Below are positions 16,520-35,204 of a DNA stretch of 64,000 nt, piece after piece; position 1 is the first letter of the stretch, and the number at the start of each line of letters is the position of its first letter. Location: positions 525,559 through 589,558 of the forward strand of contig NZ_JAUJEA010000001.1 of NCBI RefSeq assembly GCF_030442035.1. Reading direction: 5' to 3'. The position numbers and the translations under genes were made by a program. The notes beneath the pieces are model-generated. The model worked only from the letters and a program-made list of their open reading frames with translations, was not told the origin of the DNA and made no database searches. Source of the DNA: Splendidivirga corallicola. GTDB lineage: Bacteria > Bacteroidota > Bacteroidia > Cytophagales > Cyclobacteriaceae.

Positions 16520-16792
16520 CTTAATTTGGTTTGCCGTTCCGCCTTTAATGACATTAAATCATAAAGCAAACCCCGATACATTGGAAGCTCAGATTTCCTT
16601 TATTTGAAACCCATCGACATCTTCACCATGGATCTCCCTGATTATGAGTACAAAGCAGCATTATAAAAAAATTGAATATGAAACAAAAAATTACTCTTTT
16701 CCTTCCTGCAAGAAAATGAGCATGTATTCAATTCAAAAAAGTGTATTTTGGCAGCAAATTTTTTTGTTTTATTTGAAAAAAATCAAAACCAA

Positions 16793-17967: not shown

Positions 17968-19521
17968 CTAATAAAGCTCCCACTTCCCTTTTCTGTAATA
18001 TTGATAAAGCACGGGGTTATGGATTTTGTTGACCTCAACTTCGGTGCCGGCATCAAGGAAAACATCCTTTCCAAAAGATGTCATGAGGGTCATGGCATCA
18101 TGGTTAAGCCATTTAGTCTCTATCTCATCAAAATGCAATGATTGAAGTGCTCTTTTAAAAGCTTCCGCACTCAAAGCCTTAGAGCCTGCAATCCATCCCC
18201 ATTCTCCCAGAGTCAATACCTGATTGTGCATTGGAACCGTTGAAAAACCTGCTTCCTGCATGGAAATTTCTATGCACTTAAAGGCCCTGGATGCATAATA
18301 AGGACTAGTAGCCTGCGTGATGATCAAACCGTCCGGTCGAAGTTGTTTATAACATAGTTTATAGAACTCAAAGGAATACAACCGGCCTAATTCAACTGTT
18401 TTGGGATCAGGAAGGTCAATGATAATTACATCAAAATACTGCTTTGAACGTTCCATGAAAGAAAAAGCATCTTCATTAATTACCTGCACCAGAGAATCAT
18501 TCAAAACTCCTTCATTGAGCTCCAATAAAACAGGGTGGGTTTTACCCAGATCAGTCATTGCCGGATCCAGATCGACAAGTACAACTTCCTCCACAGACGG
18601 ATATTTTAAAATTTCCCGGACAGCACAACCATCCCCTCCTCCCAATACCAATATGTTTTTAGGATATCTATGAAGCGACATCAGCGGCAATACCAGCGGT
18701 TCATGGTACATTTCTTCATCAACAGTACTAAGTTGCTGATTGCCATTGATAAATAACCAATAATCATTTTTATTCCTCGTAAGAACGATTTTCTGGTATT
18801 TACTTTGTTCTGTATAGACTACTCTGTCAGTGTATCTTCTTTCTTCCCCAAAACTTATGAGCGGCTTTGATACAATAACACCACCCAACAGCGCTAATGT
18901 GATGGCACATGCAAAAGCCGTGAACTTACGTTTTACGTTTGTTTCGATATGCTTCCAAAGCATAAAAAACAAAAGCAGCGCCACCAAAAAATTGATGGTA
19001 CCAAGAATAAAGGGTGTATAGGTAAGTCCTAAATAAGGCAATCCAACAAAGGCAAAAAAAACACCACCCAGCAGGCTGCCATAGTAATCTTTCTCCAGTA
19101 TTGATGAGACATTTATACGCAGTTCTTCAAATGCATCATTAAGGCGAATCACCAGGGGAATTTCCATACCGATCAGCAATCCTATAATGATACTTAAGCC
19201 ATAAATAACCAATCCAGTATAAATACCGAATGCTGAGGTTGTATAGGTAAGCAAAGACACGTAAGCAGCAAGGATTGAAAGAAAAAACTCAATGGTTATG
19301 AACTTTTGCAGGAGATTTCGTTCAAAGTATTTGCTGATCCTACTACCCAGCCCCATCGAAAATAACATGATGGATACAATCATGGTCCATTGAAACACTG
19401 AATTCCCCAGAAAATAAGTGGCTAGTGTCGAAAGTATATACTCAGCCACAATTCCGGAAAGTCCGGTAGCAAACAAGGCAATTTTCAGAATGTTGGACCT
19501 GATCTTATGAGTAAGTTGCAT
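17968..19521 (-). CDS. membrane-anchored spermidine-synthase-like polyamine aminopropyltransferase (SpeE-like)
   Basis: N-terminal ~220 aa with 6-7 TM helices. C-terminal SpeE fold with ILVLGGGDGCAVREILKY…VVLVDLDPAM…IIIDLPDP, the SAM-binding and catalytic-D motifs of aminopropyltransferases. Confidence 0.8.
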   Translation of the reverse strand: MQLTHKIRSNILKIALFATGLSGIVAEYILSTLATYFLGNSVFQWTMIVSIMLFSMGLGSRISKYFERNLLQKFITIEFFLSILAAYVSLLTYTTSAFGIYTGLVIYGLSIIIGLLIGMEIPLVIRLNDAFEELRINVSSILEKDYYGSLLGGVFFAFVGLPYLGLTYTPFILGTINFLVALLLFFMLWKHIETNVKRKFTAFACAITLALLGGVIVSKPLISFGEERRYTDRVVYTEQSKYQKIVLTRNKNDYWLFINGNQQLSTVDEEMYHEPLVLPLMSLHRYPKNILVLGGGDGCAVREILKYPSVEEVVLVDLDPAMTDLGKTHPVLLELNEGVLNDSLVQVINEDAFSFMERSKQYFDVIIIDLPDPKTVELGRLYSFEFYKLCYKQLRPDGLIITQATSPYYASRAFKCIEISMQEAGFSTVPMHNQVLTLGEWGWIAGSKALSAEAFKRALQSLHFDEIETKWLNHDAMTLMTSFGKDVFLDAGTEVEVNKIHNPVLYQYYRKGKWELY

Positions 19522-19600
19522 GGTTTTGATGACTGTGTCTGCCTCGTTTACTTTTGTGAAACCTCGAATATGAGTTCAACCTCAATGATAAGAGAAAGGG

Positions 19601-19685
19601 GGAAATTACGAATTCCAAATGACGAATTACGAATGAAAATAGCTCATTATTCGCCATCGTAATTCGTAATTTAAAATTCGTAACT
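19601..19685. promoter_or_regulatory. clustered TTACGAAT-type repeats forming a 13-bp stem-loop in the DUF350 to SpeE-like intergenic region
   Basis: GAAATTACGAATTCC at 19601-19615. ACGAATTACGAATG (19621-19634) pairs with ATCGTAATTCGT (19655-19667). Further ATTCGTAA copies to 19685. Also AGAAAGCG-GCAC-GCTTTCT hairpin at 19717-19739. Confidence 0.3.
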
Positions 19686-19740
19686 GTATAAGATACTGTT
19701 TGCAATGGAACTGTAAAGACAGAAAGCGGCACGCTTTCTA

Positions 19741-20586
19741 TTAAAGGCTCCAGGTGATCAAAACCGATCCGCCGATATAAGCGAAGGCTTCAATGACCGC
19801 AGCACCAAGATTCGGATGTTCCTGATTGATAATTTCATCCGTCAGATTTCTTCCCGGAAGCAGGATCTTATCCGTTAACAGCCTGGCCAATGGCAGGAAC
19901 AATAGTCCTATGACCACGTCAAAAGAAACATTCTCAATCGTGATCAGCCAATCTTCAAAATCGTGCATCAGTGCGAAACGGATCAAATTAGCGATGGCAA
20001 TCAGGGCTCCTGCAAAACCAATACCCACCGCCACATTATCTCTTTCTATATGAATATGAATGTCATAGGGTGTGATCCAATTATAAACATAGGAGGTAAT
20101 GATCAGAATGGCTTGTCCTATTACCCAATATACAATAGCACTTAGGATCCCTCCTTCACCATAAATCGATCCCATAATGATCAGCCCGGTTGCAATGCTG
20201 ATAGCCCCTTCAACAATGCCAACACCGGCATTCCTGTCTTCAATCACCTCCTTGCGAATGCTGAATTTCCTAAGGATGATCTTATCATTGACCAACACTG
20301 AAAGGTTCAACAAAATCACCGCCATACCACCATATATTCCAATGTTGATCATGTCGTACATCAGGCCTTCCGACTCACCCAGCATCACACTTCCGATGGA
20401 AATCAAAAGCCCCACAAAGTAACCTGTATGTGAGAGTGCAAAAGCAAAATTATCTTTCTCAACCAGTTCCTCCTGCACTTTGATTTTTTTGTGCAGTAAC
20501 TGATAAATGAGTTTTCCTATGAAAAATAGAACAAAGCTGCTTGCCAGATAGACGAGCGTAGTTAACAGGCCATCTACGATCTCCAT
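19741..20586 (-). CDS. DUF350-family membrane protein (YjfL-like, duplicated domains)
   Basis: 281-aa ORF with multiple short TM hairpins. N-terminal …LTTLVYLASSFVLFFIGKLIYQLL… matches the DUF350 repeat pattern. Sits directly upstream of the SpeE-like gene, as in known DUF350-SpeE pairs. Confidence 0.55.
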   Translation of the reverse strand: MEIVDGLLTTLVYLASSFVLFFIGKLIYQLLHKKIKVQEELVEKDNFAFALSHTGYFVGLLISIGSVMLGESEGLMYDMINIGIYGGMAVILLNLSVLVNDKIILRKFSIRKEVIEDRNAGVGIVEGAISIATGLIIMGSIYGEGGILSAIVYWVIGQAILIITSYVYNWITPYDIHIHIERDNVAVGIGFAGALIAIANLIRFALMHDFEDWLITIENVSFDVVIGLLFLPLARLLTDKILLPGRNLTDEIINQEHPNLGAAVIEAFAYIGGSVLITWSL

Positions 20587-20649
20587 ATTAGTAATAATGA
20601 TTTAAACGATTTCAATTTAACAATTAAATAAAAGCAAAAAAATTCAAGA

Positions 20650-21414
20650 TTATTTACCAAATCCACCACCACGTGACCGCGATCGTGAGCCGCTCGAATA
20701 ACGAGATCTGGATCTTGAGTTTGAACTGGTACTTCTTTGGGTCCTGCTTCTAACCCGATCTCGAAAGCTTCTATTTGATGCTTTGTTATACCAGGTGCTA
20801 GTGGGTTTTGATTTTCTGTTGTAATCACTATAGGTACCATAGTATGTTCCTCCCGTTCCAGTGGCGGGTCCATAGTAAGGCCTCCTTCCATAATATCCTC
20901 CACGCCAGTCATCATAATACGATCTTCTTACAGGATAAGCGAACATGTTGAACATAGAGCTCATAAAGGCATATTGTCCATAAAATTCCCAAAAGCTGGT
21001 ACCATTTCTTTGCGTCCAACGACCATACTTTTCATTACCTACATAATTCGAGTAACCTGGCGGAGCAGCAGTTTTAGAAACCTTCCCATCTGAAGTTTTT
21101 GCTGCGATCTCCATTCCCATATTGTTTTCATTTCTAAAAAAATAATCTTCATCCACTTCGTACCAGTCGGTAATCTCTTCAGAAGGAGTCCCATTGTTAT
21201 CTTTGATGACCTTGTACTGATGTTTGTAAGTTTTAAAGAAAGAGCCATCCGCATCCATATCATAAAGAATTATTGAAAAAAGTGGCTCATCGGACATATC
21301 CCGGATCAAATTATCTACCGGATTTTTTACAAATTCCCGTCCCCCTCCACAGGAGGCTAATATCAACAAAAAAAATGTGGAGATCAGGACCTTGTTAGTT
21401 TTCATAATAATCAA
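20650..21414 (-). CDS. lipoprotein with Arg/Ser-rich C-terminal tail
   Basis: Lipobox (FFLLILASCGGG). Tyr/Gly-rich middle (…YYDDWRGGYYGRRPYYGPATGTGGTYYGTYSDY…). The C-terminal 50 aa is RS-repeat-like (…RSTSSNSRSRSRYSSGSRSRSRGGGFGK). Confidence 0.45.
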   Translation of the reverse strand: MIIMKTNKVLISTFFLLILASCGGGREFVKNPVDNLIRDMSDEPLFSIILYDMDADGSFFKTYKHQYKVIKDNNGTPSEEITDWYEVDEDYFFRNENNMGMEIAAKTSDGKVSKTAAPPGYSNYVGNEKYGRWTQRNGTSFWEFYGQYAFMSSMFNMFAYPVRRSYYDDWRGGYYGRRPYYGPATGTGGTYYGTYSDYNRKSKPTSTWYNKASNRSFRDRVRSRTQRSTSSNSRSRSRYSSGSRSRSRGGGFGK

Positions 21415-21539
21415 ATTTCATTGGTTTTATCAAAGTGCAAAGCACTTAGTTCCTGCGGTTTTAGGCCGCTCAAATACCGTTTTTCTAAAGATAAGGCTTT
21501 GAAAAATATCCTAAAACCTAAATTATATAAACGGAAAAA

Positions 21540-22094
21540 TTATGAGCCCGGAAGTATGTTTGAAAATTCATAAGCCTCAACACTTTTTCCAATGGAAGCT
21601 TCAAATTCACGCTCACCCCACTGCTCTACATTTAGAATTAATTTCTCACTTTTGTCATAATATTCCCATGAGATCAATTCCGACCAGGCATCATCACCAT
21701 CTCCATCAGCCACATCTCTAAAATAACCCGCACTTTCCTCATCCAAAAGGTATTTGACATCCTCATAAACTATCTTCTTGGGAGGTCTTTCATTGTTGAT
21801 GATCTCTTCGGGCAGGTCTTCATTGATGGCCCTTATTTTTACTTTTCTGCTGACAGACAGTTCCAGTTCTTCGTTATCATCGACATACAAGTAAATGAGC
21901 TCTTTGCCATTATCAAGTTGAAACTCTCTCGTAAAATAATGATTTCCCCAATCGTATTCGTACTCTTCTTTGACGATCCATGAGTCCATTTCATAATCAA
22001 CCAGAAAACCTTTTTTAAGATCTGTGATCTTCAAATTGGTAGGATCATATTCCGGTTCCGATTCTTTCTTTTTGAATAGATCAAATAATCCCAT
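21540..22094 (-). CDS. DUF4178-family protein
   Basis: 184-aa acidic protein. …LKKGFLVDYEMDSWIVKEEYEYDWGNHYFTREFQL… fits DUF4178, which is recurrently linked to DUF350/SpeE-like genes. Assignment from memory. Confidence 0.5.
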   Translation of the reverse strand: MGLFDLFKKKESEPEYDPTNLKITDLKKGFLVDYEMDSWIVKEEYEYDWGNHYFTREFQLDNGKELIYLYVDDNEELELSVSRKVKIRAINEDLPEEIINNERPPKKIVYEDVKYLLDEESAGYFRDVADGDGDDAWSELISWEYYDKSEKLILNVEQWGEREFEASIGKSVEAYEFSNILPGS

Positions 22095-22229: not shown

Positions 22230-25200
22230 TTAGTCATTCTTTTTGTTCTTTTGTATAGCATCTTTTATTCCTGATAATCCACTTGTAATCGACTCCATTT
22301 GCTCCAATACCTGCCCCATTTGATTACCAACACCAAAACCTTTTAACCTTTGTTTTCTTTGGAAAGCACTTTTAATTTCCTCCCATCGCTTCTTCTCATC
22401 TTTAGAGATTGCTTTACGCATTTCCTTGAACTTTAACAAATTGGCTTCCGCTCCCGTTGTCAAAGTTTGTGCCTCATTTTCATAATGCGACATGATTAAA
22501 GTGTTCAGCTCATCATCGTTCATCACAGGCACAATCTTTTCGGAAATTTTATTCATATCTCTGTAGGAGCCTTGTAGTTTGAATTGAGGCTCAGTTCTGT
22601 ATTCATCAGCCTGTCCGGCGGAATAGATATATTCCTTGTTAACCATCAAAATGATATCACGGGCAAATAGCAATTTTTTAATTATGCTGATATACTCATT
22701 GATTTCTTCAGCGGCATGATTTGTTTCGAATTCGATTCCTTCTCTATCACCGGTTTCTGCCACATTTATTAAAGTATAAACATCTTTTCTACTCTTACTT
22801 TGCAGTTTATTTAAAATCGGATTAGAGGTAAGACTGTTTTCTAAATAGCTGAGTTTAAATACATCATCAGAGTCCCCAATGATGTCTCCAAGATTATAGA
22901 TATCAGCCCTGTTGGCCAACATATCAGGTATTCTAAACTTCTCACCACTCTCAGTATAAGGGTTACCGGCCATCACCACACAAACCTTTTTACCTCTAAA
23001 ATCATAGGTTTTACTTCTCCCCTTATAAACACCTTCTATCTTTCTTTGTGCATCACATAATGAAATGAATTTCTGTAAGAACTCCGGATTGCAATGCTGA
23101 ATGTCATCCAGGTAGATCATCACATTGTCGCCCATCTCAAAGGCTAAATTCAATTTTTCCAGCTCTTCTCTTGCTCCGGCATTTGGTGCTTCCTCCGGAT
23201 CCACGGCAGTAACTTCATGTCCGATGGCCGGACCGTTTATCTTCATGAAAATCAGGCCTAATCGGTTGGCTAGATATTCCATTAGTGTGGTCTTTCCATA
23301 ACCTGGCGGAGAGATCAATAATAACATTCCCATTAAATCCGTCCGCTTACCTTCGCCTGCTGCTCCGATTTGTTTGGCTAAGTTGGCTCCGATCAATGGC
23401 AGATACACCTGATCAATTAATCTGTTTCTGACAAAAGATGAAAGCACCCGAGGTCTGAACTCATTGAGTCTTAGTTCACTTTCAAACTCATGAATAAGTT
23501 GTTTTTTCAGATCGGTATATTTATCATAGAGAGGAACTATGTGGCTTTCGTAGTGATCAAGTTTCTTAATAAAGGTGTTATAATTGAAATGATAAACTTG
23601 CTCCTCAATGGTGGCATGTGATCCTTGAAGGCCTGTCAGATCTTCATGCAAAGCAACATGAATAATATTCTGTTTCTTAAAATCCTTTGTTAATAATAAA
23701 CATGCGGTTTCATCAATGTAATCAATCCATTCAATTTTGTCCTCCTGTGTAACATAGGCCTTTAACCAATGCTGGATAAGATTGAACTGCAGAAGTGGCT
23801 TATCATTAAGAGAATTAATGGATTTGTCATATTCATTTTTGACTCTTTTCTTTTTTAAGTAAGCGCCGAAGGCCTCATAAAGTGCCGCTGATTCCATATC
23901 AATTACAAAATTGTCCCCTCGGCTCAACTCATAGAATAAATATTCTGACGCCTGCTGACTAATGGCAGGCTCAAACAATTGTGTTTGCTCTAAGAAAAGG
24001 TCGAGCGCTCTTTTGAGCCTCATTTTAATGTTATCAAATTCCCTGGTCTCAGGAAACACCTGGAGTATTGTACCAACACCTTTTAACTGATTTTGCAAGT
24101 CTTGTTTTTCTTCAATCGAAGCAAAGGTCTTCCAATAGAGTGTTGCACATGCTCTTGCCTCTGAAGAATACCTTAAAAGGTCAGCTGTACTGATTATTTT
24201 GATAAGTGCCTGCAAAATAATGCTGGCATCATGATCATGAATTCCTTTTACATAGCCCTCATTATATCGAACAGCCATAAAGCTTCTCACATAATCGATT
24301 AATTCTTTATTGCTTAATTTGAATAAAGCCTCAACTCCCGGTACACTTTGTTCTTGCTCTTTCCTACTTTTATGTATGGAAGCCTGCAATACCTTAAAGG
24401 CTAAATACTCTCCTCTGTAGACTGCGTTATTCTCTGAAATGATATGCTGATCCCAAACTTCTCTGCAGGAATTAAACGTTTCATGGATAATTTCCTCAAA
24501 AAAATTGGTTCCCGTAAGATGATATTGCATCGACCCATCCCTATAAATAATAGTAAGGTCAAGGGGTTGTGTGTTAACTGAGAACTGATATTTACCAAAT
24601 TGAATCAAATTCTCACCATCCACGAAAAGCTCCGTTTTATCCTTTAACTGCCGGATGGCATCCTCTTTAACTGTCTTCAAACGACTCTGAATGTCATCTG
24701 ACTTCACAGTATCACCAATATCAATAAGCTCCTGAACGATATCTCTTATCTTTTCTATCATGAGGTCAGAAGCGAAATAGCCATTTATTTCTTTTGGATC
24801 ATCAAATCTGGCGACCCTGCTTTTGGCAGCATTTAATATTCTATCGGCAGCTTGTAATAAGTTATTAGCTCTTCTGTTTCTATTCTCAATGAGATTTACC
24901 TTTTTGGACTCAAAGGCATTGTATATCTCTTCCCTTTTAATGGTGATTTTTTCAATGAACTCATCGAATTCCGAGAATTTACCTTCCAGTTCCTCCAGTT
25001 GCACCATTAACTTAGTGAGGTATTCATCACATTTTTCCGGGGTATCACAAATATCCAGATAGTTGATTACACCCTGATCAATCAATTTGACTTGAGCGTT
25101 GAACTCAGCTTTTCCTTCAACGCTTAGTAATTCCTTTCTTCTCCTTTTTAGTGATGCCCTTATTTGATTAAAACCGGAGTAGATAGCCGAAATATTATCT

Positions 25201-27170
25201 ATGATCTTAGTCGTGTGGGTAGCATCCTCAATATTAAGGTTGGTAACTATTTCAATGAGCATTTCCAGTTCTTGTGAAACAATATCAATTTCATTCTCCA
25301 GCTCATTGGCATCAAATACTTTTTTAACTTTCGTTACAGCAGATTCAATTTTCTCCACCCGTGTTTGATATGGTTTCAGCGCCTGCTCCTTCAAAAGGAA
25401 GCTTACACAAGCTGATGAAACTTTATCAGTTATTTCATAAATACCCTTTTCCAAAAGTTCCACCTTTTGAACCTCTACGTAACGGAGTTCTTTAAGACCG
25501 ATCAATTCTCCTTTTATTGTTCGAAGCGCAGCCAGATATTGAACAAAGTCATCGATATTGGCGGCCTTTTTCCTTTTAATGTCTGTAACCAACTTCTCAG
25601 ATGCCTGCGTTACTCTGAGGACTTCTCGTTCGGTATTCTTTTTAATGCTGCTTACCTTCTCATACTCCGAAACAGCTGATGAAGCTGTTTCCTTGATAGC
25701 AAACAGTGGTTCACTTAGTTCATAGGATTCCTGTTTTCCCAGCCAATGATAACTATCAACAATATCTGTCGTGCGCTTGATAAGCTCACCATACAAGTCA
25801 GTATAGCTATCCTCTTTTTGCAAGAGTGTTAGTATTTCATGGCATTCTGCCATGGCCCTAACCACTTCCTTATTACCTATCTTGTATAAATAGGAATCAT
25901 TATTAGCGTTAATTTGAAAATCCGGCCCTACATAAGGCGTTTGCCAAATTTGAATAGCATGATGCTTTTTTGCCTCTTCATCAGCCCTGAAATTGATTTG
26001 CTCGCCATTTTCAAATAAGGAATAACCATGGCAAACCAATGGATTCTCCACGGCCTGTTCAATAAGATTATAAGGAAGCAAAAGGTATATCCCGGATTCT
26101 TTATTGTAAAAAACATAAAGAAAATCTTCTCCATTTGGAGAGGCGATTCTCTTTTCAAAGAGCATATGGTCTAACTGATTATCAAATTGCTTAACCTCTC
26201 CGGTCTGCAGATAATAACCATTGGAAAAGATGACGCCATGATCGTCCGGCAACAACACACAGGCATCTTTTAAGGCATCTATTCTTCTAGCTTCTTGCAG
26301 CTTGGCATTGTACACAATATATCGGTAGTCTTTCTCCTGGTAAGGCCTGATTTTTAAAACAATAATGTTACCAACGATTGCATAGTAAATCTCGGCATCT
26401 TCCAATCTCTGTTCCCGGTGTTCAACTTTCTCTGTATAAATGCCGCTTCCTTCATCCGTATTATCTTCAATCTTGATGGTTAAAGATCCTCCAATAGTTT
26501 CTACGAAAACCTTGTCTTCAATACTGATATGAGGAAATTTACCTTCTCTATGTAGATCCCGGTTAGTCCTTTTCCACTCGAATTCATGCTGCTGGGGGAA
26601 TACATATTCATGATCGCTTCGATTGTCGACATACTCAAGTTTGTCCCCTTTTACTAACCATTTAAATGTTTTGATATCCTCAGCATCTTTTCCAACTCTG
26701 AAAACCATATGAATATGAGGTCCGATCTCGGCAAACTTTATAAACCTTGTATTTTTATAATATTTATAAAGCTTTGAAAAATCATCCTTGAATACCTTGT
26801 CCTCAATTAATGTCAAGGGCATGGTATGAAAGCTATGATCACTATACCGATAAACACTAAAAACATCTGATAAGGCTGTCTCTGTCTTTAGGCCTAGGTG
26901 AACATTGTATCCAAAAATGAAAAATGACCCTATTGCTACCATGTCTGTGGGAACACAGTTGTTTTCCGTATTCACCCTTTCAGTGGATTTCAGCACAGTA
27001 TCAATAGAGCCAAATACTTCTTTCCGTACATTATTAAGCTGGTTCAACCGTTTTCTAAGCTCCTGTCCACTTTGGAGTATACGGTTGCGCAATATTTCAT
27101 ACGTTCCTTCTTCCAATTGTACAGATTGAACCTGATCAGAATTGTTTTCTATATTTTGATTTTCAGACAT
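22230..27170 (-). CDS. 1646-aa coiled-coil protein with C-terminal AAA+ ATPase domain (AAA_5 / dynein-MoxR-like subtype); function unknown
   Basis: Single uninterrupted ORF. Walker A ISPPGYGKTT encoded at about 23289-23315 (minus strand). Walker B and downstream helix MIYLDDIQHCNPEFLQKFISLCD fit the AAA_5 hhhhDEin..p.vl..L..ll pattern. Arg-finger candidates in …GNPYTESGEKFRIPDMLANRADIY…. The preceding ~1280 aa are E/K/L-rich heptad-type coiled coil plus unassigned globular segments. No TM helices. Confidence 0.75.
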   Translation of the reverse strand: MSENQNIENNSDQVQSVQLEEGTYEILRNRILQSGQELRKRLNQLNNVRKEVFGSIDTVLKSTERVNTENNCVPTDMVAIGSFFIFGYNVHLGLKTETALSDVFSVYRYSDHSFHTMPLTLIEDKVFKDDFSKLYKYYKNTRFIKFAEIGPHIHMVFRVGKDAEDIKTFKWLVKGDKLEYVDNRSDHEYVFPQQHEFEWKRTNRDLHREGKFPHISIEDKVFVETIGGSLTIKIEDNTDEGSGIYTEKVEHREQRLEDAEIYYAIVGNIIVLKIRPYQEKDYRYIVYNAKLQEARRIDALKDACVLLPDDHGVIFSNGYYLQTGEVKQFDNQLDHMLFEKRIASPNGEDFLYVFYNKESGIYLLLPYNLIEQAVENPLVCHGYSLFENGEQINFRADEEAKKHHAIQIWQTPYVGPDFQINANNDSYLYKIGNKEVVRAMAECHEILTLLQKEDSYTDLYGELIKRTTDIVDSYHWLGKQESYELSEPLFAIKETASSAVSEYEKVSSIKKNTEREVLRVTQASEKLVTDIKRKKAANIDDFVQYLAALRTIKGELIGLKELRYVEVQKVELLEKGIYEITDKVSSACVSFLLKEQALKPYQTRVEKIESAVTKVKKVFDANELENEIDIVSQELEMLIEIVTNLNIEDATHTTKIIDNISAIYSGFNQIRASLKRRRKELLSVEGKAEFNAQVKLIDQGVINYLDICDTPEKCDEYLTKLMVQLEELEGKFSEFDEFIEKITIKREEIYNAFESKKVNLIENRNRRANNLLQAADRILNAAKSRVARFDDPKEINGYFASDLMIEKIRDIVQELIDIGDTVKSDDIQSRLKTVKEDAIRQLKDKTELFVDGENLIQFGKYQFSVNTQPLDLTIIYRDGSMQYHLTGTNFFEEIIHETFNSCREVWDQHIISENNAVYRGEYLAFKVLQASIHKSRKEQEQSVPGVEALFKLSNKELIDYVRSFMAVRYNEGYVKGIHDHDASIILQALIKIISTADLLRYSSEARACATLYWKTFASIEEKQDLQNQLKGVGTILQVFPETREFDNIKMRLKRALDLFLEQTQLFEPAISQQASEYLFYELSRGDNFVIDMESAALYEAFGAYLKKKRVKNEYDKSINSLNDKPLLQFNLIQHWLKAYVTQEDKIEWIDYIDETACLLLTKDFKKQNIIHVALHEDLTGLQGSHATIEEQVYHFNYNTFIKKLDHYESHIVPLYDKYTDLKKQLIHEFESELRLNEFRPRVLSSFVRNRLIDQVYLPLIGANLAKQIGAAGEGKRTDLMGMLLLISPPGYGKTTLMEYLANRLGLIFMKINGPAIGHEVTAVDPEEAPNAGAREELEKLNLAFEMGDNVMIYLDDIQHCNPEFLQKFISLCDAQRKIEGVYKGRSKTYDFRGKKVCVVMAGNPYTESGEKFRIPDMLANRADIYNLGDIIGDSDDVFKLSYLENSLTSNPILNKLQSKSRKDVYTLINVAETGDREGIEFETNHAAEEINEYISIIKKLLFARDIILMVNKEYIYSAGQADEYRTEPQFKLQGSYRDMNKISEKIVPVMNDDELNTLIMSHYENEAQTLTTGAEANLLKFKEMRKAISKDEKKRWEEIKSAFQRKQRLKGFGVGNQMGQVLEQMESITSGLSGIKDAIQKNKKND

Positions 27171-27281: not shown

Positions 27282-27983
27282 TTAAACCGTAAAGTATTCT
27301 TCCAACTCTTTCAAAGTATTCTCACTGGTTTTAATATCATGGATGATATTTCCTTTCTCTAACACCACGATTCTTTCACATACTTCCGTTACATGGTTTA
27401 AGTCGTGACTGGATATCAGCATGGTTACCTGTTTTTCATGTTTCAATTCCAACAATCTCTTTTTCAACCTTATTTGGGTAGTAGGATCAAGGTTGGCAAA
27501 TGGCTCGTCTAAAACTATTATTTCAGGATCAATCATCAAAGCTGCCGCAATACCTACCTTTTTTTGATTTCCCTTGGAAAGATCCCGAATGTATTTCTTC
27601 ACTCCTCTGATCTCACCATTGAACACTTCCTCAAAAGAATTTAGAAAACTTTCCACATCTCCTTTTGAAAGCCCATGAATATTTGCAATAAAGTTGAAAT
27701 ATTCATCAGGTGTCAGGAAATCAATCAAAAACCCCTCATCCAGGTAAGATCCGGTATATTTCTTCCACTCTTCGTTTTCACTTACGACTACATCATTGGA
27801 TTTAACCATTCCGTTATTTGGTCTAATGAGATCCAGGATCATTCTGAAAAGTGTTGTTTTTCCAGCGCCATTGTTACCAACAAGACCGAAACTTTCCCCT
27901 TTTGAAATGTTCAATTCGGGAACGTTAACAACTTCTATTTCTTTATAGGATTTTTTAAGATCGTTTATTTCTATTATGTTCAT
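27282..27983 (-). CDS. ABC transporter ATP-binding protein
   Basis: Walker A GNNGAGKTT, ABC signature LSKGNQKKVGIAAAL, Walker B IIVLDEP, H-loop SSHDL. Confidence 0.85.
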   Translation of the reverse strand: MNIIEINDLKKSYKEIEVVNVPELNISKGESFGLVGNNGAGKTTLFRMILDLIRPNNGMVKSNDVVVSENEEWKKYTGSYLDEGFLIDFLTPDEYFNFIANIHGLSKGDVESFLNSFEEVFNGEIRGVKKYIRDLSKGNQKKVGIAAALMIDPEIIVLDEPFANLDPTTQIRLKKRLLELKHEKQVTMLISSHDLNHVTEVCERIVVLEKGNIIHDIKTSENTLKELEEYFTV

Positions 27984-28031
27984 CTCTTCGATTTTATTTA
28001 TTTGTGAATTGTGTAATGGTTTGACTTGAGA

Positions 28032-29510
28032 TCAGACTTGCCTGAAACCTGATGCTATAATGTATTTTCTATTATTATATCTTTTTTCTAAAAGTTGAAG
28101 CCAGTAGTCCTTCAAAATAAATCCTACTATACCCATTGTTGCCAACAAGCCCACTCCTACCCACGGAATATCAAACAACATGAATGGCACCGCCAGAAGT
28201 ATCGGCCCAAGCAAGAATGGAAGAACCAAAATAAACTGCGTAGCGCTTATACCTTCATAATTGAAAGCTGCACCCTTACTCAGATCTACCTTCTTAGGGT
28301 TTTTTAACCCAAAATAAAGGATCGTAAATGAGTTCACGCCTATATTAAAAAGACAGCATGCCAGGTTGATGATTACTACTTTCCACCCAAAATATATATA
28401 AGGTATGCTTAAGACAAAGGCAATGGCTGAACTGGCCACAAACAACCACATTTTCGATTCAAGGTAATCCCTTGCACTGATATTGCTTGATAGTATTTTA
28501 TCAAAAAAACTACTGTGCCAGCTCAAGAGTAACTGGCCATAGTTGCTTAGGAAAATCCCGGTAATGAAAATCCCAACAAATATTAGAAAGCCAAATCCCT
28601 CCAGGTAGATATCATTGGTGTAAAAGATCAATCCATACAACAAAAAAGCAACGCTCAGATAGAATATTGATTTTGGTCTTTTGTTTCTTAGAATAAGCTT
28701 CATTTCCAAGGCTATGAAGTGACCAATTTTGCCATATCTATCCAAAAATGAAGTATTGAGTTCTTTGTATTCGTTTTTCTTCCTTCCAATTTGAATCTCT
28801 TCTAAGTAAGCATTTCGTTTTAAAAAATTATAGTTGATATAATAGGCGAGCCCTATCATTCCTAAGATAACCAGTAGCAGTAAAGGATTTCCGGCAATGG
28901 CGGAAAAAGTAGCAGACGCAAACTGAGAAATATTCAAAAGTTGAAAATAATCAGCAGCAGCCAGTGAGAGTAGCAGCAAAGCAAAGATCAACACAACCTT
29001 GGCATTTCCAGCTAATTGTCTCTTTATATGGATGGCCAGGAAGTTGCTGAATAAGATCATTCCGCATACTCCCAAAAACCAGTAAAGTGCACCATTACTA
29101 CCCACAGTTCCGGGTGCCACTTTAATAGCGAATGGAATAAAGATCAGCAAAGGCAGGTAATTGAAAAAGCTTACCAGCGATTTGGAGAGCATAAAATGTA
29201 TCATTTTGCCCTTCTTGATAGGTAAGTGAAGATAGGGTGTTATGGAAAGTACGGGTACATCCTGCAGGAAGAACCTCATTAGTATATCCATACCCAAATA
29301 GTAAAATAAGAAACTGTTAAATACGGTAAATGGATCTTGGTCAGGAAAAACATTTTTTAGGATCTCATCAATAAAAAAACCAAGCAATAAGAGATAGGCC
29401 ATCATTATAAAAATGAAGATGCCCAACACAATGTTAACACCAGTGCTACTATTAAATCTCGTTGCCCGGAAAGTCTCCTTCCATTGATGATCAATGAGCC
29501 ACTTTATCAT
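28032..29510 (-). CDS. polytopic membrane protein, putative permease partner of the ABC ATPase
   Basis: 492-aa ORF with about 12 TM helices. Sits immediately upstream of the ABC ATPase with a 48-bp gap. No family recognised by eye. Confidence 0.55.
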   Translation of the reverse strand: MIKWLIDHQWKETFRATRFNSSTGVNIVLGIFIFIMMAYLLLLGFFIDEILKNVFPDQDPFTVFNSFLFYYLGMDILMRFFLQDVPVLSITPYLHLPIKKGKMIHFMLSKSLVSFFNYLPLLIFIPFAIKVAPGTVGSNGALYWFLGVCGMILFSNFLAIHIKRQLAGNAKVVLIFALLLLSLAAADYFQLLNISQFASATFSAIAGNPLLLLVILGMIGLAYYINYNFLKRNAYLEEIQIGRKKNEYKELNTSFLDRYGKIGHFIALEMKLILRNKRPKSIFYLSVAFLLYGLIFYTNDIYLEGFGFLIFVGIFITGIFLSNYGQLLLSWHSSFFDKILSSNISARDYLESKMWLFVASSAIAFVLSIPYIYFGWKVVIINLACCLFNIGVNSFTILYFGLKNPKKVDLSKGAAFNYEGISATQFILVLPFLLGPILLAVPFMLFDIPWVGVGLLATMGIVGFILKDYWLQLLEKRYNNRKYIIASGFRQV

Positions 29511-29711
29511 AATTCGTTAGTTTTTGTTTTAGTATTGTATACAAATTGTTTATTTCTTTTTTCTAAACAGGTTCAGGTAATACCTTCAAAAAAATTAGGT
29601 ATTAGTAATCATTATTGTAGTATTTACAGTATTGGTACTATTGATAGCAACTTGTGTGGCCACTCTTGCATTTAACACAGATTTATGAATAGCTTCGGCC
29701 AACTCATGCTT

Positions 29712-30287
29712 TTATATCAAATTTTTAATTTTGTGTTTTGCATTTCTCAACCCATCTTTCTCTAAAAAAATTTGCCGCAGCAGATTGCAAGTATAACTCA
29801 AACATACCAACAGTGTCATGTCATCAGATAGATTACTCTCATATTGAATAAAATCTTTCAACGTCCGAATAAGCTCATCTTTATGTTTGATATTGACAAT
29901 TGGATATCTTTTAGACTTGAATATCCACAATGTCCTTTGTTCTTTTTGTTCAAGTATTCTTTTTTCGATCAGTTGACGGATATAGTAATTTTGAATTTTC
30001 CTTCCGTTTCTTGCCAATCGACTAATCCAAAAAGACAACTTACGAGCCTTCTTGTCCTGTGCTATAAGTTCAAGAGCCAGATTGTGCATAGGGTTATCAT
30101 TTCTTCCGGAAGACACAATGTTCAGTTTATTATTATCATCGATTTTAATCTTATTTTGCTTTATAAGTTCGTATAATAATATGCCGCTCAATGAATAAAC
30201 CATACCCAAATGAGTTGTAACAAGGCTACCCCTTTGGGTATCAATTCCCAATAAAATAAGTTTTTCTGAAAGTTGAAGTGTCTGCAT
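29712..30287 (-). CDS. GPP34 (GOLPH3/Vps74)-family protein, bacterial form
   Basis: 191-aa ORF. N-terminal LSEKLILLGIDTQRGSL… resembles the conserved start of bacterial GPP34-family proteins (L.EELLLLALDDEKG). All-helical composition. Assignment from memory, moderate. Confidence 0.45.
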   Translation of the reverse strand: MQTLQLSEKLILLGIDTQRGSLVTTHLGMVYSLSGILLYELIKQNKIKIDDNNKLNIVSSGRNDNPMHNLALELIAQDKKARKLSFWISRLARNGRKIQNYYIRQLIEKRILEQKEQRTLWIFKSKRYPIVNIKHKDELIRTLKDFIQYESNLSDDMTLLVCLSYTCNLLRQIFLEKDGLRNAKHKIKNLI

Positions 30288-30303
30288 ATTATTTATTTTG
30301 TTC

Positions 30304-30615
30304 TTATAAGTTTAACCAAAATGTTACGGCAAAATATAACCATATGATTGTTATTAATAGTAGACCCATTGTGACTAACCGGTAGAACTTCGACTTTTTA
30401 CCGGCCAATTCAATTTTCTTTTTCTTGCGCTGCTTCTTTTGCTCATCAGCCCTTTTTTCTTTGATCCATTGTTGTATCTCCTCTTTTGTAGTATCTGAAT
30501 TGTTATTAGTGGCCCTAGTTACATTATTATTACTAGAAGGAACTTTTTTTTCAGAATCAATGGTCATTGTAGGCTCCGCGATAGTGTTATTTACTGTTAA
30601 GTCTTTTGAATACAT
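30304..30615 (-). CDS. small tail-anchored membrane protein (Lys-rich N-term, one C-terminal TM)
   Basis: 103-aa ORF. …KEKRADEQKKQRKKKKIELAGKK… then a single TM helix (LVTMGLLLITIIWLYFAVTFWL). Confidence 0.3.
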   Translation of the reverse strand: MYSKDLTVNNTIAEPTMTIDSEKKVPSSNNNVTRATNNNSDTTKEEIQQWIKEKRADEQKKQRKKKKIELAGKKSKFYRLVTMGLLLITIIWLYFAVTFWLNL

Positions 30616-30932: not shown

Positions 30933-33068
30933 CTAAATGATTCCTAAACTATTTACGGCTTTATCATCAATACCTAATGCTTTAGCTACATTGGATAATT
31001 GATTCAAAACATCCTTGGAATCACTATCTTTTGCTTGATCAATCAATTTCAGCAACAACGCCGAAACACTCAAATTTTTGATATCATTGGTGTTTAAGCC
31101 AAATTGACCAACAAACTGACGCAATTTATCCTTAAAGCTTTGTCCGGTATCAGTAGTGAAGAAAACGTCTTTAACATCCTGTATCACGTGACTATTATCA
31201 ACCATTCTGTCCACAGTTTTACCTTTAGTAATCGCGCCCATGATTTGGTTAAAGAACATGGTTTCTCCTCCAACGATATCTATATTGGCCGCTTTTAACG
31301 CTTCGGATATAACCTCAGCTTGTGCCATGGCTATGTCTCGTTGAATGTTGATAGAAGCCAGCTCAATTTCTTTATCCTTCTCCAGGTTCAATTTAAACTC
31401 TTCATGTTCTTTACCAACACCATCCAACTTCTTCATGGCATCAGCCTTCTGCTCAATACCCTTGGCATCAACCGCTAATTTCTCGGCGATTACTCTTGCT
31501 TCTGCCAGTCCTTTTTTCTCCTCAGCCTCAGCTTTTGCTTCGACAACTTTGGCTTGTGCCAATCCAAGTTTTTGATCGCCAATGGCCTGAGCCTCTGATC
31601 TGACCTCAATACCCTTCGCTTCCGCCTCAGCCTTGTCTTCAATCAGGCTGGCCTCTGCTTCACCTTGTTTTATCTTGGCTGCAGCTTTTGCTTCCATTAC
31701 CTGTGCTTCCGACATACCCAATGCCGCAGCTTCAGCTGCCTTCGCCTCAGCTAGTGTTTTAACTGCATCGGCCTTGTGGCCCGCAGAGGCCTGCTCAGCT
31801 TCTGCATCGATCAGGATTTGCTTGGCTCTGTGCTCAGCGGCCTGCTTTTTAGCTTCCGCGTCTTTTATCTCTTTAACCAAGGCCTGTTCAGCATCCCTTT
31901 CAGCATTGGTAATGGCTACCTTTTTATTTCTTTCCGCTTCGGAATAAGCTTTGGTATCCTTAATTTTTTCTTCTTCTTCCACTACGGCCTTTTCCACCGC
32001 TACTCTTTCTCTGATAACATCCTGGATATTCTTTCTTTCTTCTTCCACGGCCTTTTCCTTTTCTATCTGGGCTAAAGTCACAATTCGCTCTCTTTCTGTG
32101 GCTTCCAACATTCTCGCCTGCTCCACTCTCTCGGTCTCCACGGCATCGGTTTTCTCTTTATTTTTCTGAGCCACCAATACTTCTCTTGCTTTATTTTGTT
32201 CTGCTACCTGAACTTCTTCATCAGTCTGAATTCTTGATTTTTCTGATTTTAATCGTTCCTGTTCCTGAACAATTTTTATTTCGGCCTCTTCTCTGGCTTT
32301 GATAGATTCCACTTCCTTTCGTTGTTTTTCCTCTGTTTCGGCCAATTGCTTTTCAAGCTCAAGTATTGTCTCCCTGGCCTCAACATTTTGTTTTGTGATC
32401 GTTTTCTCTTTTTCCTTTTCGATTAAGTTTGCTTTGATCTTTTCTCTGGAAGTGATATCAATAATTTTCTTGATACCTTCAGCGTCCAAAATGTTGCTCT
32501 CGTTTAAAGAATCGAGCGGTGTTTGCTCTAAATAATCTATAGCACAATCATCAAGGATATAACCGTTAAGATTGGTTCCTATTTCTTCGATGATTCTTTC
32601 CCTGAACTGTGCTCTGGAATTATACAATTCAACGAAATCAAATTGCTTTCCAACAGTTTTCAATGCTTCGGAAAATTTGGCATCGAATAACAATTCAAGT
32701 TGCTCTTTCGAAGATGCTCTTTGACAACCAATTGATTGTGCAACGTGTATCACATCCTCCTTCGTTTTATTTACCCTAACAAAAAAGGTTACTTTTATAT
32801 CCGCTCTCAGATTGTCTTGACATATCAATCCATCTTTACCTGTTCTTGATATTACCATTGTCTTTAAAGTAATATCCATTACTTCCATCTTGTGTAGAAC
32901 AGGAATTACGAACATTCCTTCGAATGATACTTTAGTTCCTCCTTTGCCGGTTTTTACAATAGCCTCTCCCTGTATTACCTTTTTGTACATTTTTATAAAT
33001 GCTACTAAGGCACCAAACAGGAAAATGCTTCCAATAATTATTAATGCATAAATTACAGATCCTGCCAT
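30933..33068 (-). CDS. flotillin (SPFH/band-7 family, YqiK-like) with ~450-aa Ala/Glu/Lys-rich coiled-coil
   Basis: N-terminal TM helix and SPFH domain (…GEAIVKTGKGG…MEVMDITLKTMVISR…DNLRADIKVTFFVRV…). Long EA/KA-repeat coiled-coil. Conserved flotillin C-terminal region. Confidence 0.85.
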   Translation of the reverse strand: MAGSVIYALIIIGSIFLFGALVAFIKMYKKVIQGEAIVKTGKGGTKVSFEGMFVIPVLHKMEVMDITLKTMVISRTGKDGLICQDNLRADIKVTFFVRVNKTKEDVIHVAQSIGCQRASSKEQLELLFDAKFSEALKTVGKQFDFVELYNSRAQFRERIIEEIGTNLNGYILDDCAIDYLEQTPLDSLNESNILDAEGIKKIIDITSREKIKANLIEKEKEKTITKQNVEARETILELEKQLAETEEKQRKEVESIKAREEAEIKIVQEQERLKSEKSRIQTDEEVQVAEQNKAREVLVAQKNKEKTDAVETERVEQARMLEATERERIVTLAQIEKEKAVEEERKNIQDVIRERVAVEKAVVEEEEKIKDTKAYSEAERNKKVAITNAERDAEQALVKEIKDAEAKKQAAEHRAKQILIDAEAEQASAGHKADAVKTLAEAKAAEAAALGMSEAQVMEAKAAAKIKQGEAEASLIEDKAEAEAKGIEVRSEAQAIGDQKLGLAQAKVVEAKAEAEEKKGLAEARVIAEKLAVDAKGIEQKADAMKKLDGVGKEHEEFKLNLEKDKEIELASINIQRDIAMAQAEVISEALKAANIDIVGGETMFFNQIMGAITKGKTVDRMVDNSHVIQDVKDVFFTTDTGQSFKDKLRQFVGQFGLNTNDIKNLSVSALLLKLIDQAKDSDSKDVLNQLSNVAKALGIDDKAVNSLGII

Positions 33069-34808: not shown

Positions 34809-35204
34809 TTAGTTTTTTGAAAATTTGATTAACTCGTTTGAATACTCGCTTAACAAAAGTCCCAATGAATTTAAAGTAGCTTCTATTTCATTTAAATCAA
34901 GGTTCTCCAATTCATGAGTATTTCTGAAAATAACTTTCTTACCCGATTCATCCAGTACAAATGCTCCGTGAATGATATCTCTGTTTTTTTGTAACAGCCC
35001 TTTATAAACATCCGTGGATTCGTTATTTACTTCTAAAATGAATTGTTCAACAATTAATAAAGGGTCTGCGACACCAAGTACAAGGTTTTTAACACCTTCT
35101 GTTTCATGTTCAATTACAATGATGCCATCATCATCATTTTCATAAGTAATTGAGTAGTTTAACTCAAGGACGTAGTCTTTTACTTTTTGAAAGTAATTAT
35201 TCAT
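34809..35204 (-). CDS. YjfI-like (DUF2170) protein, PspA-associated
   Basis: 131-aa acidic protein immediately upstream of pspA with a 15-bp gap. Size, composition and position mirror yjfI-yjfJ in Enterobacteria. Similarity judged by eye only. Confidence 0.5.
   Translation of the reverse strand: MNNYFQKVKDYVLELNYSITYENDDDGIIVIEHETEGVKNLVLGVADPLLIVEQFILEVNNESTDVYKGLLQKNRDIIHGAFVLDESGKKVIFRNTHELENLDLNEIEATLNSLGLLLSEYSNELIKFSKN

Follow-up and report, generated by a model that had tools for sequence, protein, structure and literature searches.

The closest described counterparts of the locus presented here are the PspA operons surveyed by Ravi et al. (2024, mSystems; PMC11237479). In operons that join CesT/Tir, PspA, flotillin and YqiJ genes, that survey lists a protein of the type "beta-propeller + coiled-coil + AAA-ATPase", with Dokdonia donghaensis ANH61663.1 as the prototype context. 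The ATPases of this family are grouped there among the PspA-linked "chaperone-like" partners, with neither an assignment of the AAA+ clade nor a test of function (PMC11237479).

The locus compared with these operons lies in a stretch of 64,000 nucleotides of Splendidivirga corallicola (contig NZ_JAUJEA010000001.1, positions 525,559 to 589,558), referred to as the window. The large ATPase encoded in it has the same domain order (beta-propeller, coiled coil, AAA+). Its gene stands at the end of the same series of genes: a divergent cHTH+protease gene, then CesT_Tir, PspA, YqiJ-YuaF, band-7/flotillin and the ATPase. The sporadic presence of an HKD phospholipase D and the wide distribution of a shorter flotillin-YqiJ-ATPase version are also common to both. 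The window differs in having four extra genes between flotillin and ATPase, and in carrying in the same string the polyamine module (DUF4178, lipoprotein, DUF350, SpeE) that forms the "second major group" of PspA operons of Ravi et al. (PMC11237479). Nothing essential differs between the two systems. The genes of the string are as follows, in window coordinates:

36446..37135, plus strand: HKD phospholipase D-like protein of 229 aa (PF13091, E = 3.9e-31), a sporadic accessory gene
35591..36373, plus strand: divergent gene for an XRE-HTH + peptidase S24 (LexA/CI-like) protein (Pfam HTH_3, Peptidase_S24)
34809..35204, minus strand: CesT/Tir-like chaperone, the PspA partner (PF22550, E = 1.3e-56)
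34062..34793, minus strand: PspA/IM30 of the ESCRT-III superfamily (PF04012, E = 5.5e-44)
33080..33757, minus strand: YqiJ/YuaF-like (NfeD-type) membrane protein of 225 aa, third member of the conserved triad
30933..33068, minus strand: YqiK-type flotillin of 711 aa, with an N-terminal TM segment at residue 5, an SPFH domain and a long E/A/K-rich helix
27282..30615, minus strand: insertion between flotillin and ATPase, with a 103-aa TM protein, GPP34, DUF5687 and an ABC ATPase (Pfam)
22230..27170, minus strand: whole gene of the DUF3686/DUF7902/MoxR-class AAA+ protein, 1646 aa, ATG start
17968..22094, minus strand: downstream module of DUF4178, lipoprotein, DUF350 (YjfL-like) and 7TM-fused polyamine aminopropyltransferase (Pfam, NCBIfam)

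MoxR ATPases usually act with a VWA partner. CbbQ of the Rubisco activase CbbQO and NorQ of NorQD, which are the nearest structures to the AAA+ module of the window ATPase at only 13-15% sequence identity, are ~260 aa long and rely on a separate VWA/MIDAS protein. The window ATPase departs from both in its ~1240 extra N-terminal residues, in having no conserved VWA gene nearby, and in a Walker B with DD rather than DE. As with Vps4 and ESCRT-III and other AAA+ disassemblases, it is encoded beside a self-assembling membrane scaffold, namely flotillin and, in Bacteroidota, PspA. A further likeness is found in HflK/C-FtsH, where two reports describe an SPFH scaffold coupled functionally to an AAA+ enzyme (PMC13220708, PMC12005517). 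FtsH, in contrast, is a membrane-anchored classical-clade AAA protease enclosed by its SPFH cage, whereas the window ATPase is soluble, has no protease domain and is of the MoxR class. Homologues of the first two triad genes are found in E. coli yqiJ-yqiK and B. subtilis yuaF-floT, with a strong match to YqiK and a weak one to YqiJ, although in the E. coli operon no ATPase gene follows. The ATPase-linked flotillins, at ~650-720 aa, are also longer than YqiK (553 aa), with the surplus inside the helical region at residues ~460-600, and they escape the Pfam Band_7 and Flot models.

The ATPase gene is a single open reading frame, as an earlier sequence-only reading had it, and a frame of this length cannot have arisen by chance in DNA of 37% GC. 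The product is 100% identical to the NCBI entry "DNA repair ATPase [Fulvivirgaceae bacterium BMA10]". In line with that reading, no TM segment is found (highest Kyte-Doolittle mean over 19 residues, 1.39), and a Pfam search returns no nuclease, helicase or SMC match. The ATPase is a soluble, cytoplasmic protein. Its parts are arranged as follows, with the beta and helical units taken from AlphaFold2 models:

25746..27062, minus strand: DUF3686 domain, residues 37-475, with an N-terminal helix (17-53) and a beta-propeller-like domain (59-410) of ~26 strands
24627..25892, minus strand: helical stalk, residues 427-848, made of bundles of 15-58-residue helices and including DUF7902
25131-25385, minus strand: DUF7902 (PF25472), residues 596-680
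23451..24608, minus strand: middle region, residues 855-1240, with a five-strand beta unit (855-893), an all-alpha globular domain (919-1161) and a connecting helix (1197-1233)
22752..23423, minus strand: single AAA+ module of the MoxR class, residues 1250-1473, with a beta-hairpin before sensor 1 (residues 1377-1390)
23286..23309, minus strand: Walker A PPGYGKTT, residues 1288-1295
23103..23117, minus strand: Walker B IYLDD, residues 1352-1356
22908..22967, minus strand: sensor 1 (AGN1403P) to putative arginine finger (MLANR1421AD), roles assigned from position in the AAA+ fold
22233..22712, minus strand: C-terminal helical lid and extension, residues 1487-1646, including QGSYR1537 as putative sensor 2

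The sequence-only reading had described an undescribed protein of no nameable family, with no recognisable family at its N-terminus. This is contradicted by two Pfam families, by the identical NCBI entry and by the description of Ravi et al. PF12458 (DUF3686) matches residues 37-475 over profile positions 1-448 of 448 (629.3 bits against a gathering threshold of 25 bits; E = 3.7e-189). PF25472 (DUF7902) matches residues 596-680 over positions 1-85 of 85 (100.3 bits against a threshold of 26 bits; E = 6.9e-29). Carriers of the DUF3686 domain, which Pfam describes as "ATPase involved in DNA repair", form 747 clusters at 50% identity; the domain is always N-terminal, in proteins of ~1600-1900 aa. 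The N-terminus is thus placed in a catalogued, functionally untested family rather than in a characterized one.

In the model of the N-terminal part (pLDDT 85.5), residues 59-410 are beta-rich. The Foldseek matches of this part in the PDB are propeller proteins in every case, with a probability of ~1, although they are remote (target-normalised TM-score ~0.3-0.36). The long E/K/L-rich coiled coil proposed earlier holds for residues ~427-848 only, and there as helix bundles, the longest predicted helix being 58 residues; residues 59-410 do not conform to it, nor do residues 919-1240, which are all-alpha and globular. Residues 855-1240 have no Pfam, NCBIfam or PDB sequence match. The C-terminal part is modelled with a pLDDT of 88.1 and a pTM of 0.76. 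The predicted domain order is a beta-propeller, a helical-bundle stalk, an all-alpha middle domain, one MoxR-class AAA+ module and a helical C-terminal extension.

The AAA+ module is matched by Pfam AAA_5 at residues 1283-1407 (27.2 bits, cut-off 22) and by PF00004 AAA (28.4 bits), while the MoxR model AAA_3 gives no match at E up to 1. The assignment to the MoxR class follows the MoxR-type AAA+ proteins found as its closest profile or structure. The model builds the pre-sensor-1 hairpin from two strands, 1377-1382 and 1385-1390, which follow helix 3 and precede strand 4. The helix-2 hairpin insert of the MoxR/AAA_5 clade was sought after strand 2 and ahead of helix 2, where the model has a conserved loop (1313-1330) with one short helix and predicts no hairpin. 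Dynein and midasin were rejected as relatives on the number of modules, as the ATPase has one instead of six concatenated; Vps4 and the classical AAA clade were rejected in turn, the pairing of an MIT domain at the N-terminus with a AAA fold of the classical clade not being found.

The ATPase motifs picked out earlier, Walker A, Walker B and GNPYTESGEKFRIPDMLANR at residue 1402, all stand. Walker A of the form GxxGxGK[ST], a polar residue at sensor 1, a putative arginine finger and a putative sensor 2 in the lid are each recognizable. Of 422 full-length family members, all but one carry SPPGYGKT[TS]. Among the 421 members with a located Walker A, [LVI]DD[IVM]QH is found in 413, AGNP in 401, ML[AST]NR[AS]D in more than 410 and QGSYR in 420. 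Such conservation, with each motif in 401-421 of ~421 full-length members across phyla, suggests that the ATPase is an active enzyme. The catalytic Glu of a hhhhDE Walker B is replaced by Asp throughout the family, and D1355 and D1356 are invariant in the alignments. Judging from this substitution, hydrolysis may be slow or switch-like and not motor-like.

The family is large and widespread. Two database searches returned 5052 and 3848 homologues below E = 1e-5, and members occur in Bacteroidota, Planctomycetota, Verrucomicrobiota, Desulfobacterota, Kiritimatiellota, Clostridia, Actinomycetota, Betaproteobacteria and Myxococcota. Colinear full-length homologues are encoded at 73 of 80 related genome loci. 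The same layout is seen in over 400 database proteins (1550-1930 aa) that range from Bacteroidota to Streptomyces and stem from many independent assemblies. The ATPases of the related loci share 46-68% identity over several phyla, with full length constant in every lineage examined. In open-access papers and preprints, no experimental work on the DUF3686 family was found, nor was any mention of DUF3686, or of the name "DNA repair ATPase" together with flotillin. Papers on P. aeruginosa SPFH proteins and on flotillin-associated rhodopsins proved unrelated to the ATPase family. The window protein is an ordinary member of this catalogued but functionally uncharacterized DUF3686/DUF7902/AAA+ family. 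Its presence in Pfam, and its architecture and operon context in Ravi et al. (2024), were already known. Four points are added here: the ATPase module is assigned to the MoxR class, a DD Walker B runs through the whole family, flotillin and not PspA is by count the constant partner, and the partner flotillins go undetected by the Pfam Band_7 and Flot models.

The neighbourhood was compared across the 80 related loci, 65 of which have at least 2.5 kb of DNA upstream of the ATPase gene. In 62 of these 65, which cover at least seven phyla, the gene immediately preceding the ATPase on its strand encodes a YqiK-type flotillin; the median gap is 124 bp, and some of the genes overlap. Despite ample upstream DNA, three loci (L017, L025 and L032) have no adjacent flotillin. 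Streptomyces scabiei and Aquincola share the arrangement, as does a divergent metagenomic clade. When all neighbouring ORFs of the 80 loci are clustered, the only broadly conserved neighbours are flotillin (63 loci) and the YqiJ-like gene (53 loci); the latter has a homologue upstream of flotillin in 53-57 of the 80. No VWA/MIDAS gene is conserved beside the ATPase in the 80 loci, the sole VWA gene (L082) being ~7 kb away and not conserved.

The flotillin of the window is missed by Pfam, NCBIfam and PDB sequence searches, while BLASTP aligns it with E. coli YqiK at 30% identity over 443 aa (E = 5e-45). The YqiJ-like protein has weak matches to Pfam YqiJ_N (E = 0.007) and to E. coli YqiJ (BLASTP E = 0.004). 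A special C-terminal docking extension on the ATPase-linked flotillins was considered and rejected, as the surplus length lies in the helical region and the last 80 residues are only moderately conserved. The genes for a YqiJ/NfeD-like membrane protein, a YqiK-type flotillin and the ATPase make up, in this order, a conserved module, and the gene context led Ravi et al. to the same view of the partner (PMC11237479). The relation to flotillin is one of gene linkage, and such linkage is compatible with flotillin as a substrate, as a platform or as no more than a co-regulated neighbour.

The remaining genes of the string vary by lineage. PspA is linked to the triad in 21 of the 80 loci and the CesT/Tir-like gene in 17-19, both in Bacteroidota only. 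A homologue of the XRE-HTH/S24 protein occupies the same divergent position in 20 loci and is the counterpart of the "cHTH+Protease" entry in the table of Ravi et al. (PMC11237479); it is likely to be the regulator of the gene string. Close homologues of the HKD phospholipase D-like protein (E = 1e-52 to 1e-75) occur near the ATPase in six loci, and a gene of this type lies immediately downstream of the ATPase in a betaproteobacterial locus (L086). Its recurrence is consistent with a membrane or lipid process. The insertion at 27282..30615 is lineage-specific, being found elsewhere only in a sister Fulvivirgaceae genome (L081). The same four downstream genes follow the ATPase in loci L003, L012, L038 and L057. 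In Bacteroidota the triad is set inside a larger envelope-stress gene string with CesT/Tir-PspA and, in the window, the polyamine module as well. The presence of PspA and flotillin at the locus had been noted from the sequence, and both are encoded in the gene string.

The ATPase most likely remodels a flotillin scaffold because its gene almost always follows a flotillin gene. The balance tips slightly towards a ring-forming MoxR-class remodeler that is dedicated to flotillin assemblies. Its AAA+ modules would assemble into a ring, as in MoxR ATPases, and ATP turnover would assemble, open or dismantle a membrane-attached flotillin/YqiJ oligomer, or alternatively pull out a client that the oligomer holds. 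Docking of the motor onto the flotillin assembly would fall to the built-in propeller and stalk, in place of a separate VWA adaptor (CbbO, NorD). Against this stand the missing VWA partner, which sets the ATPase apart from usual MoxR ATPases, the three loci that lack an adjacent flotillin, the family-wide DD Walker B, the remoteness of the propeller matches and the middle domain, to which no family is assigned. A bolder form is tentative and rather to be doubted: a MoxR-class hexamer would use its propeller and stalk to attach to a flotillin dome, opening or dismantling it, and would be the first dedicated ATP-driven SPFH/flotillin remodeler. If true, it would be the flotillin counterpart of Vps4 for ESCRT-III or of NSF for SNAREs, and flotillin dynamics would be coupled to PspA-mediated membrane repair in Bacteroidota. 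The scaffold-ATPase idea of the sequence-only reading survives in part, since the conserved gene order agrees with such a function at the flotillin/PspA locus; the word "undescribed" does not.

A MoxR-style chaperone for the maturation or repair of a specific membrane client, confined by a flotillin cage and bound by the propeller, is an unlikely alternative that still has several points in its favour. CbbQO and NorQD, whose Q subunits are the closest structures, act on Rubisco and on nitric oxide reductase, respectively. One report has bacterial flotillin microdomains confining and stabilizing unfolded proteins (PMC11222466), and the accessory genes differ by lineage (phospholipase D; the ABC/DUF5687 pair; the polyamine module). 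Across the 80 loci, however, neither a candidate client gene nor a VWA/MIDAS adaptor is conserved beside the triad. The chaperone reading overlaps heavily with that of a flotillin remodeler, the substrate being the sole difference.

A Vps4 analogue that disassembles or recycles PspA polymers at the membrane, with flotillin as a mere platform, had been suggested from the sequence and seems improbable. PspA and CesT/Tir head the same gene string in the window, Ravi et al. place such ATPases with the PspA-linked partners (PMC11237479), and reviews report no Vps4-like ATPase for bacterial PspA (PMC7619361). This suggestion is weakened by the counts, with PspA restricted to its Bacteroidota minority of loci against flotillin in 62 of 65.

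A role in DNA repair, after the Pfam and NCBI names, is very improbable. Apart from these names, it is favoured by weak RuvB_N/RuvB matches over the P-loop stretch only (E = 1e-4 to 5e-5), far below curated cut-offs. Pfam finds no DNA-binding, nuclease, helicase or SMC/Rad50 head domain, the conserved neighbours in the 80 loci are membrane proteins and not repair genes, and no supporting paper was found in the open-access literature. The name may have spread, at a guess, from coiled-coil similarity to SbcC/Rad50-type annotations. A MukB/SMC-like tether, as once proposed, was rejected together with Rad50: an ABC/SMC head is missing, as neither SMC_N nor AAA_23 matches the protein; the helices do not form a long uninterrupted coiled coil; and the sole P-loop is of the AAA+ type.

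A part in anti-phage defence, with the ATPase as sensor or effector of the system, was another of the earlier proposals and is equally hard to credit. A large protein with a single NTPase module, the HKD phospholipase D-like gene that is sometimes adjacent, and weak PADLOC matches to mad8 (E = 1.2e-4) and TRIP13 (E = 8e-3) would agree with it. These matches are limited to the P-loop core, with no significant full-length match in PADLOC-DB 2.0; the neighbourhood is a conserved envelope-stress operon and not a variable defence island, and the sequence identity over several phyla at constant length is unlike that of fast-evolving defence genes. The possibility that a sequencing frameshift joined two genes, for which nothing speaks except the unusual protein length, is refuted because the homologues are full-length and colinear, and the AlphaFold2 model also packs the middle domain against the AAA+ module, leaving it virtually no credence.

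We know of no account that settles how stable SPFH/flotillin cages are opened, loaded or recycled. On membranes, SPFH/flotillin proteins form closed domes according to cryo-EM structures of 2022-2026 (PMC11260169, PMC13000311, PMC12624060). A 1600-residue ATPase that is tied genetically to one flotillin subfamily in at least seven phyla, with tractable genera such as Streptomyces among the carriers, offers an experimental handle on cage opening and recycling. The family is relevant, too, to the report that bacterial PspA lacks a known Vps4-like partner (PMC7619361). The name "DNA repair ATPase", carried by thousands of database entries, is unsupported and better not propagated.

Transcription signals were sought between 17000 and 36000 with a sigma-70 promoter and terminator scan, in which the counts equalled those of shuffled sequence; the sigma-70 scan is uninformative for a Bacteroidota genome. 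A terminator-like hairpin is located at 17903-17915, just past speE.

The ATPase is encoded by a single uninterrupted ORF with an ATG start (22230..27170, minus strand, 1646 aa). The motifs by which the sequence-only reading had classed it lie at residues 1288 (PPGYGKTT), 1352 (IYLDD) and 1402 (GNPYTESGEKFRIPDMLANR), and both the feature and its class are borne out. As that reading also held, there is no TM segment, since the highest 19-residue Kyte–Doolittle mean is 1.39. A Pfam scan returns zero nuclease, helicase or SMC head matches. Residues 1-1280 have only a slight compositional bias (E 9.8%, L 9.8%, I 8.3%, K 8.1%). A frameshift fusion of two genes is rejected on the basis of long ORFs in relatives: of 80 related genome loci, 73 have one that is colinear and measures 1600 aa or more, and databases hold 422 homologues longer than 1500 aa.

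The N-terminus had been described as lacking a recognisable family, which does not hold. PF12458 (DUF3686) covers residues 37-475 with the model matched end to end (E = 3.7e-189), followed by PF25472 (DUF7902) at residues 596-680 (E = 6.9e-29). Against the Pfam models PF00004 and AAA_5, the AAA+ core reaches 28.4 and 27.2 bits, respectively. With residues 1-480 as the query, 747 clusters are matched among 1.84 billion cluster representatives (E <=1e-3), and in complete proteins (about 1550-1930 aa) the DUF3686 region is N-terminal every time. The family extends through Bacteroidota, Planctomycetota, Verrucomicrobiota, Desulfobacterota, Kiritimatiellota, Clostridia, Actinomycetota (Streptomyces, Nonomuraea), Betaproteobacteria and Myxococcota. 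Far from being undescribed, the protein is an unremarkable representative of a family that databases already catalogue and earlier publications mention. Experimental studies of the family were not found among open-access papers and preprints. The Pfam description of PF12458 is “ATPase involved in DNA repair”, and the NCBI entry 100% identical to the protein is named “DNA repair ATPase [Fulvivirgaceae bacterium BMA10]”; support for this name was found in neither domains, gene context nor literature. Longer homologues (about 1780-1980 aa) occur in Planctomycetota, Desulfobacterota and some Verrucomicrobiota (loci L008, L013, L015, L016, L018, L021, L022, L025, L044, L069-L071 and L073), their additional 100-300 residues lying outside the part alignable to the window ATPase, apparently at the C-terminus.

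The architecture was predicted from two overlapping AlphaFold2 models, using alignments of 100 Bacteroidota and Clostridia homologues: residues 1-880 (pLDDT 85.5) and residues 841-1646 (pLDDT 88.1, pTM 0.76). The first model contains a helix (17-53), about 26 beta strands in four-strand groups over 59-410, and helices of 15-58 residues across 427-848. Foldseek matches this part exclusively to beta-propeller proteins, with probabilities near 1 and low TM-scores (IFT-A, Elp1, clathrin terminal domain, CyRPA, Vps11 WD40, KLHDC3 and prolyl oligopeptidase). The N-terminal half is therefore predicted to be a divergent beta-propeller followed by a stalk of short helical bundles; the continuous, SMC-like coiled coil suggested earlier is not seen, as no helix exceeds 58 residues. 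The second model opens with a small beta unit and an all-alpha domain (919-1161); a long helix connects these to a single AAA+ alpha/beta domain and its lid, after which the chain ends in a helical extension. The modelled fold is of the MoxR class, with midasin (12.2), ClpA (11.9), dynein (about 11.4), Vps4 (11.1) and McrB (11.1) ranking below CbbQ and NorQ. Residues 1377-1390, ahead of sensor 1, form a beta-hairpin, and the helix-2 hairpin insert is not evident. Neither single-sequence nor profile searches found solved structures related beyond the P-loop.

The nucleotide-site motifs were counted over about 421 full-length family members from distant phyla:

Walker A, SPPGYGKT[TS]: 421 of about 421 members
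Walker B, [LVI]DD[IVM]QH: 413 of about 421 members
Sensor 1, AGNP: 401 of about 421 members
Putative Arg finger, ML[AST]NR[AS]D: >410 of about 421 members
Putative sensor 2, QGSYR: 420 of about 421 members

Conservation at this level speaks for a functional nucleotide site, and the conserved arginine finger would point to ring assembly. The catalytic Glu of Walker B is Asp across the whole family, a departure from the canonical AAA+ motif.

In the window, the ATPase lies within the following gene string, in transcription order, with two divergent genes:

34809-35204, (-), CesT/Tir-like chaperone, first in the string
34062-34793, (-), PspA
33080-33757, (-), YqiJ-like membrane protein, 225 aa
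30933-33068, (-), flotillin, 711 aa
27282-30615, (-), 103-aa TM protein, GPP34, DUF5687 and ABC ATPase, between flotillin and ATPase
17968-22094, (-), DUF4178, lipoprotein, DUF350 and 7TM-fused polyamine aminopropyltransferase, downstream of the ATPase
35591-36373, (+), XRE-HTH + peptidase S24 protein, divergent from the CesT-PspA string
36446-37135, (+), HKD phospholipase D-like protein (PLD), after the XRE-HTH + S24 gene

The neighbour proteins were searched against the ORFs of the 80 loci. Two genes, one for a YqiK-type flotillin and one for a YqiJ-like protein, are near-obligately linked to the ATPase. Of the 65 loci where 2.5 kb or more of upstream sequence is available, 62 have a flotillin homologue directly upstream on the same strand (median gap 124 bp, some genes overlapping), and the YqiJ-like gene precedes the flotillin in 53-57 of the 80. 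Unsupervised clustering of all neighbour ORFs returns these two as the sole broadly conserved neighbours; downstream of the ATPase, no conserved gene was found in the 80 loci. Streptomyces scabiei, Aquincola and a divergent metagenomic clade carry this triad too. PspA, CesT and the HTH-S24 regulator (21, 17-19 and 19-20 loci, respectively) are neighbours in Bacteroidota only.

Similarity to E. coli YqiK (30% identity over 443 residues, E = 5e-45) identifies the 711-aa flotillin, which has zero matches in Pfam, NCBIfam and PDB sequence searches. Flotillins linked to the ATPase (about 600-790 aa) make up a subfamily of clear YqiK homologues (E = 1e-34 to 5e-45) without a Band_7, Flot, NCBIfam or PDB sequence match, in both our own scans and precomputed annotations, and domain-based surveys of SPFH proteins would overlook them:

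window, 30933-33068, (-)
L081 (sister genome), 4808-6940
L082, 8041-9999
L084 (S. scabiei), 5875-7911
L086, 5823-7970

About 4 kb downstream of its triad, S. scabiei encodes a second flotillin, which is canonical (Band_7 + Flot, 477 aa) and is preceded by a small gene of its own (L084 16266-18323); this genome thus carries ATPase-linked and ATPase-free flotillins side by side.

It is proposed that the ATPase forms an AAA+ ring and may use ATP to assemble, open or dismantle the flotillin/YqiJ membrane assembly, or alternatively to act on a client held within it. The propeller and stalk would do the job for which other MoxR systems have a separate VWA adaptor. The protein may be a dedicated flotillin remodeler. 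Acting on PspA in the manner of Vps4 is a second-rank possibility that would apply to Bacteroidota alone, since the constant neighbour is flotillin and not PspA; a 2025 review (PMC7619361) states that a Vps4-like ATPase appears absent from bacteria. The SMC/MukB-like (no SMC head, no continuous coiled coil), dynein-like and defence readings each fail their defining test and are rejected.

Ravi et al. 2024 (PMC11237479) placed a “beta-propeller + coiled-coil + AAA-ATPase” in operons with CesT/Tir, PspA, band-7/flotillin and YqiJ. They also described an abbreviated, more widely distributed flotillin-YqiJ-ATPase form, phospholipase D in some Proteobacteria, and a second operon group, a separate PspA operon class, with spermidine-synthase, DUF350, lipoprotein and DUF4178 genes. 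The window is a typical instance, with both groups fused in one gene string. In the window, as in four other loci (L003, L012, L038 and L057), this polyamine module follows immediately 3′ of the ATPase gene, and one CesT-PspA pair therefore heads both modules.

The XRE-HTH + peptidase S24 gene, of the LexA/CI-like, self-cleaving type, keeps its divergent layout in 20 related loci of Bacteroidota, suggesting that the CesT-PspA envelope-stress operon has a repressor controlled by cleavage. The PLD gene is directly downstream of the triad in Aquincola, and homologues recur beside the ATPase module in six loci:

L086, 13148-13855
L071, 9259-10113
L073, 16589-17293
L010, 15486-15962
L014, 1341-1826
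L081, 986-1693

The encoded protein is small (about 230 aa) and closely similar between phyla (E = 1e-52 to 1e-75), and the betaproteobacterial gene overlaps the stop codon of the ATPase.

Within the insert between flotillin and ATPase, the 103-aa protein is K-rich and the DUF5687 protein (492 aa) polytopic; GPP34/GOLPH3 is a phosphoinositide-binding Golgi family in eukaryotes. Among the loci examined, only L081 has a comparable insertion, in which the DUF5687 and ABC genes recur behind two small genes without a Pfam match. The putative lipoprotein (254 aa, 20650-21414, minus strand) has an unusual terminal tail rich in Ser and Arg (…RSRTQRSTSSNSRSRSRYSSGSRSRSRGGGFGK) and no match in Pfam or NCBIfam. 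Immediately beyond the gene string is the gene for a Bax1-I (BI-1/YccA family) membrane protein (16748-17500, plus strand), and a 1477-aa ORF with a TTG start (39398-43831, plus strand) lies beyond the PLD and SnoaL genes.
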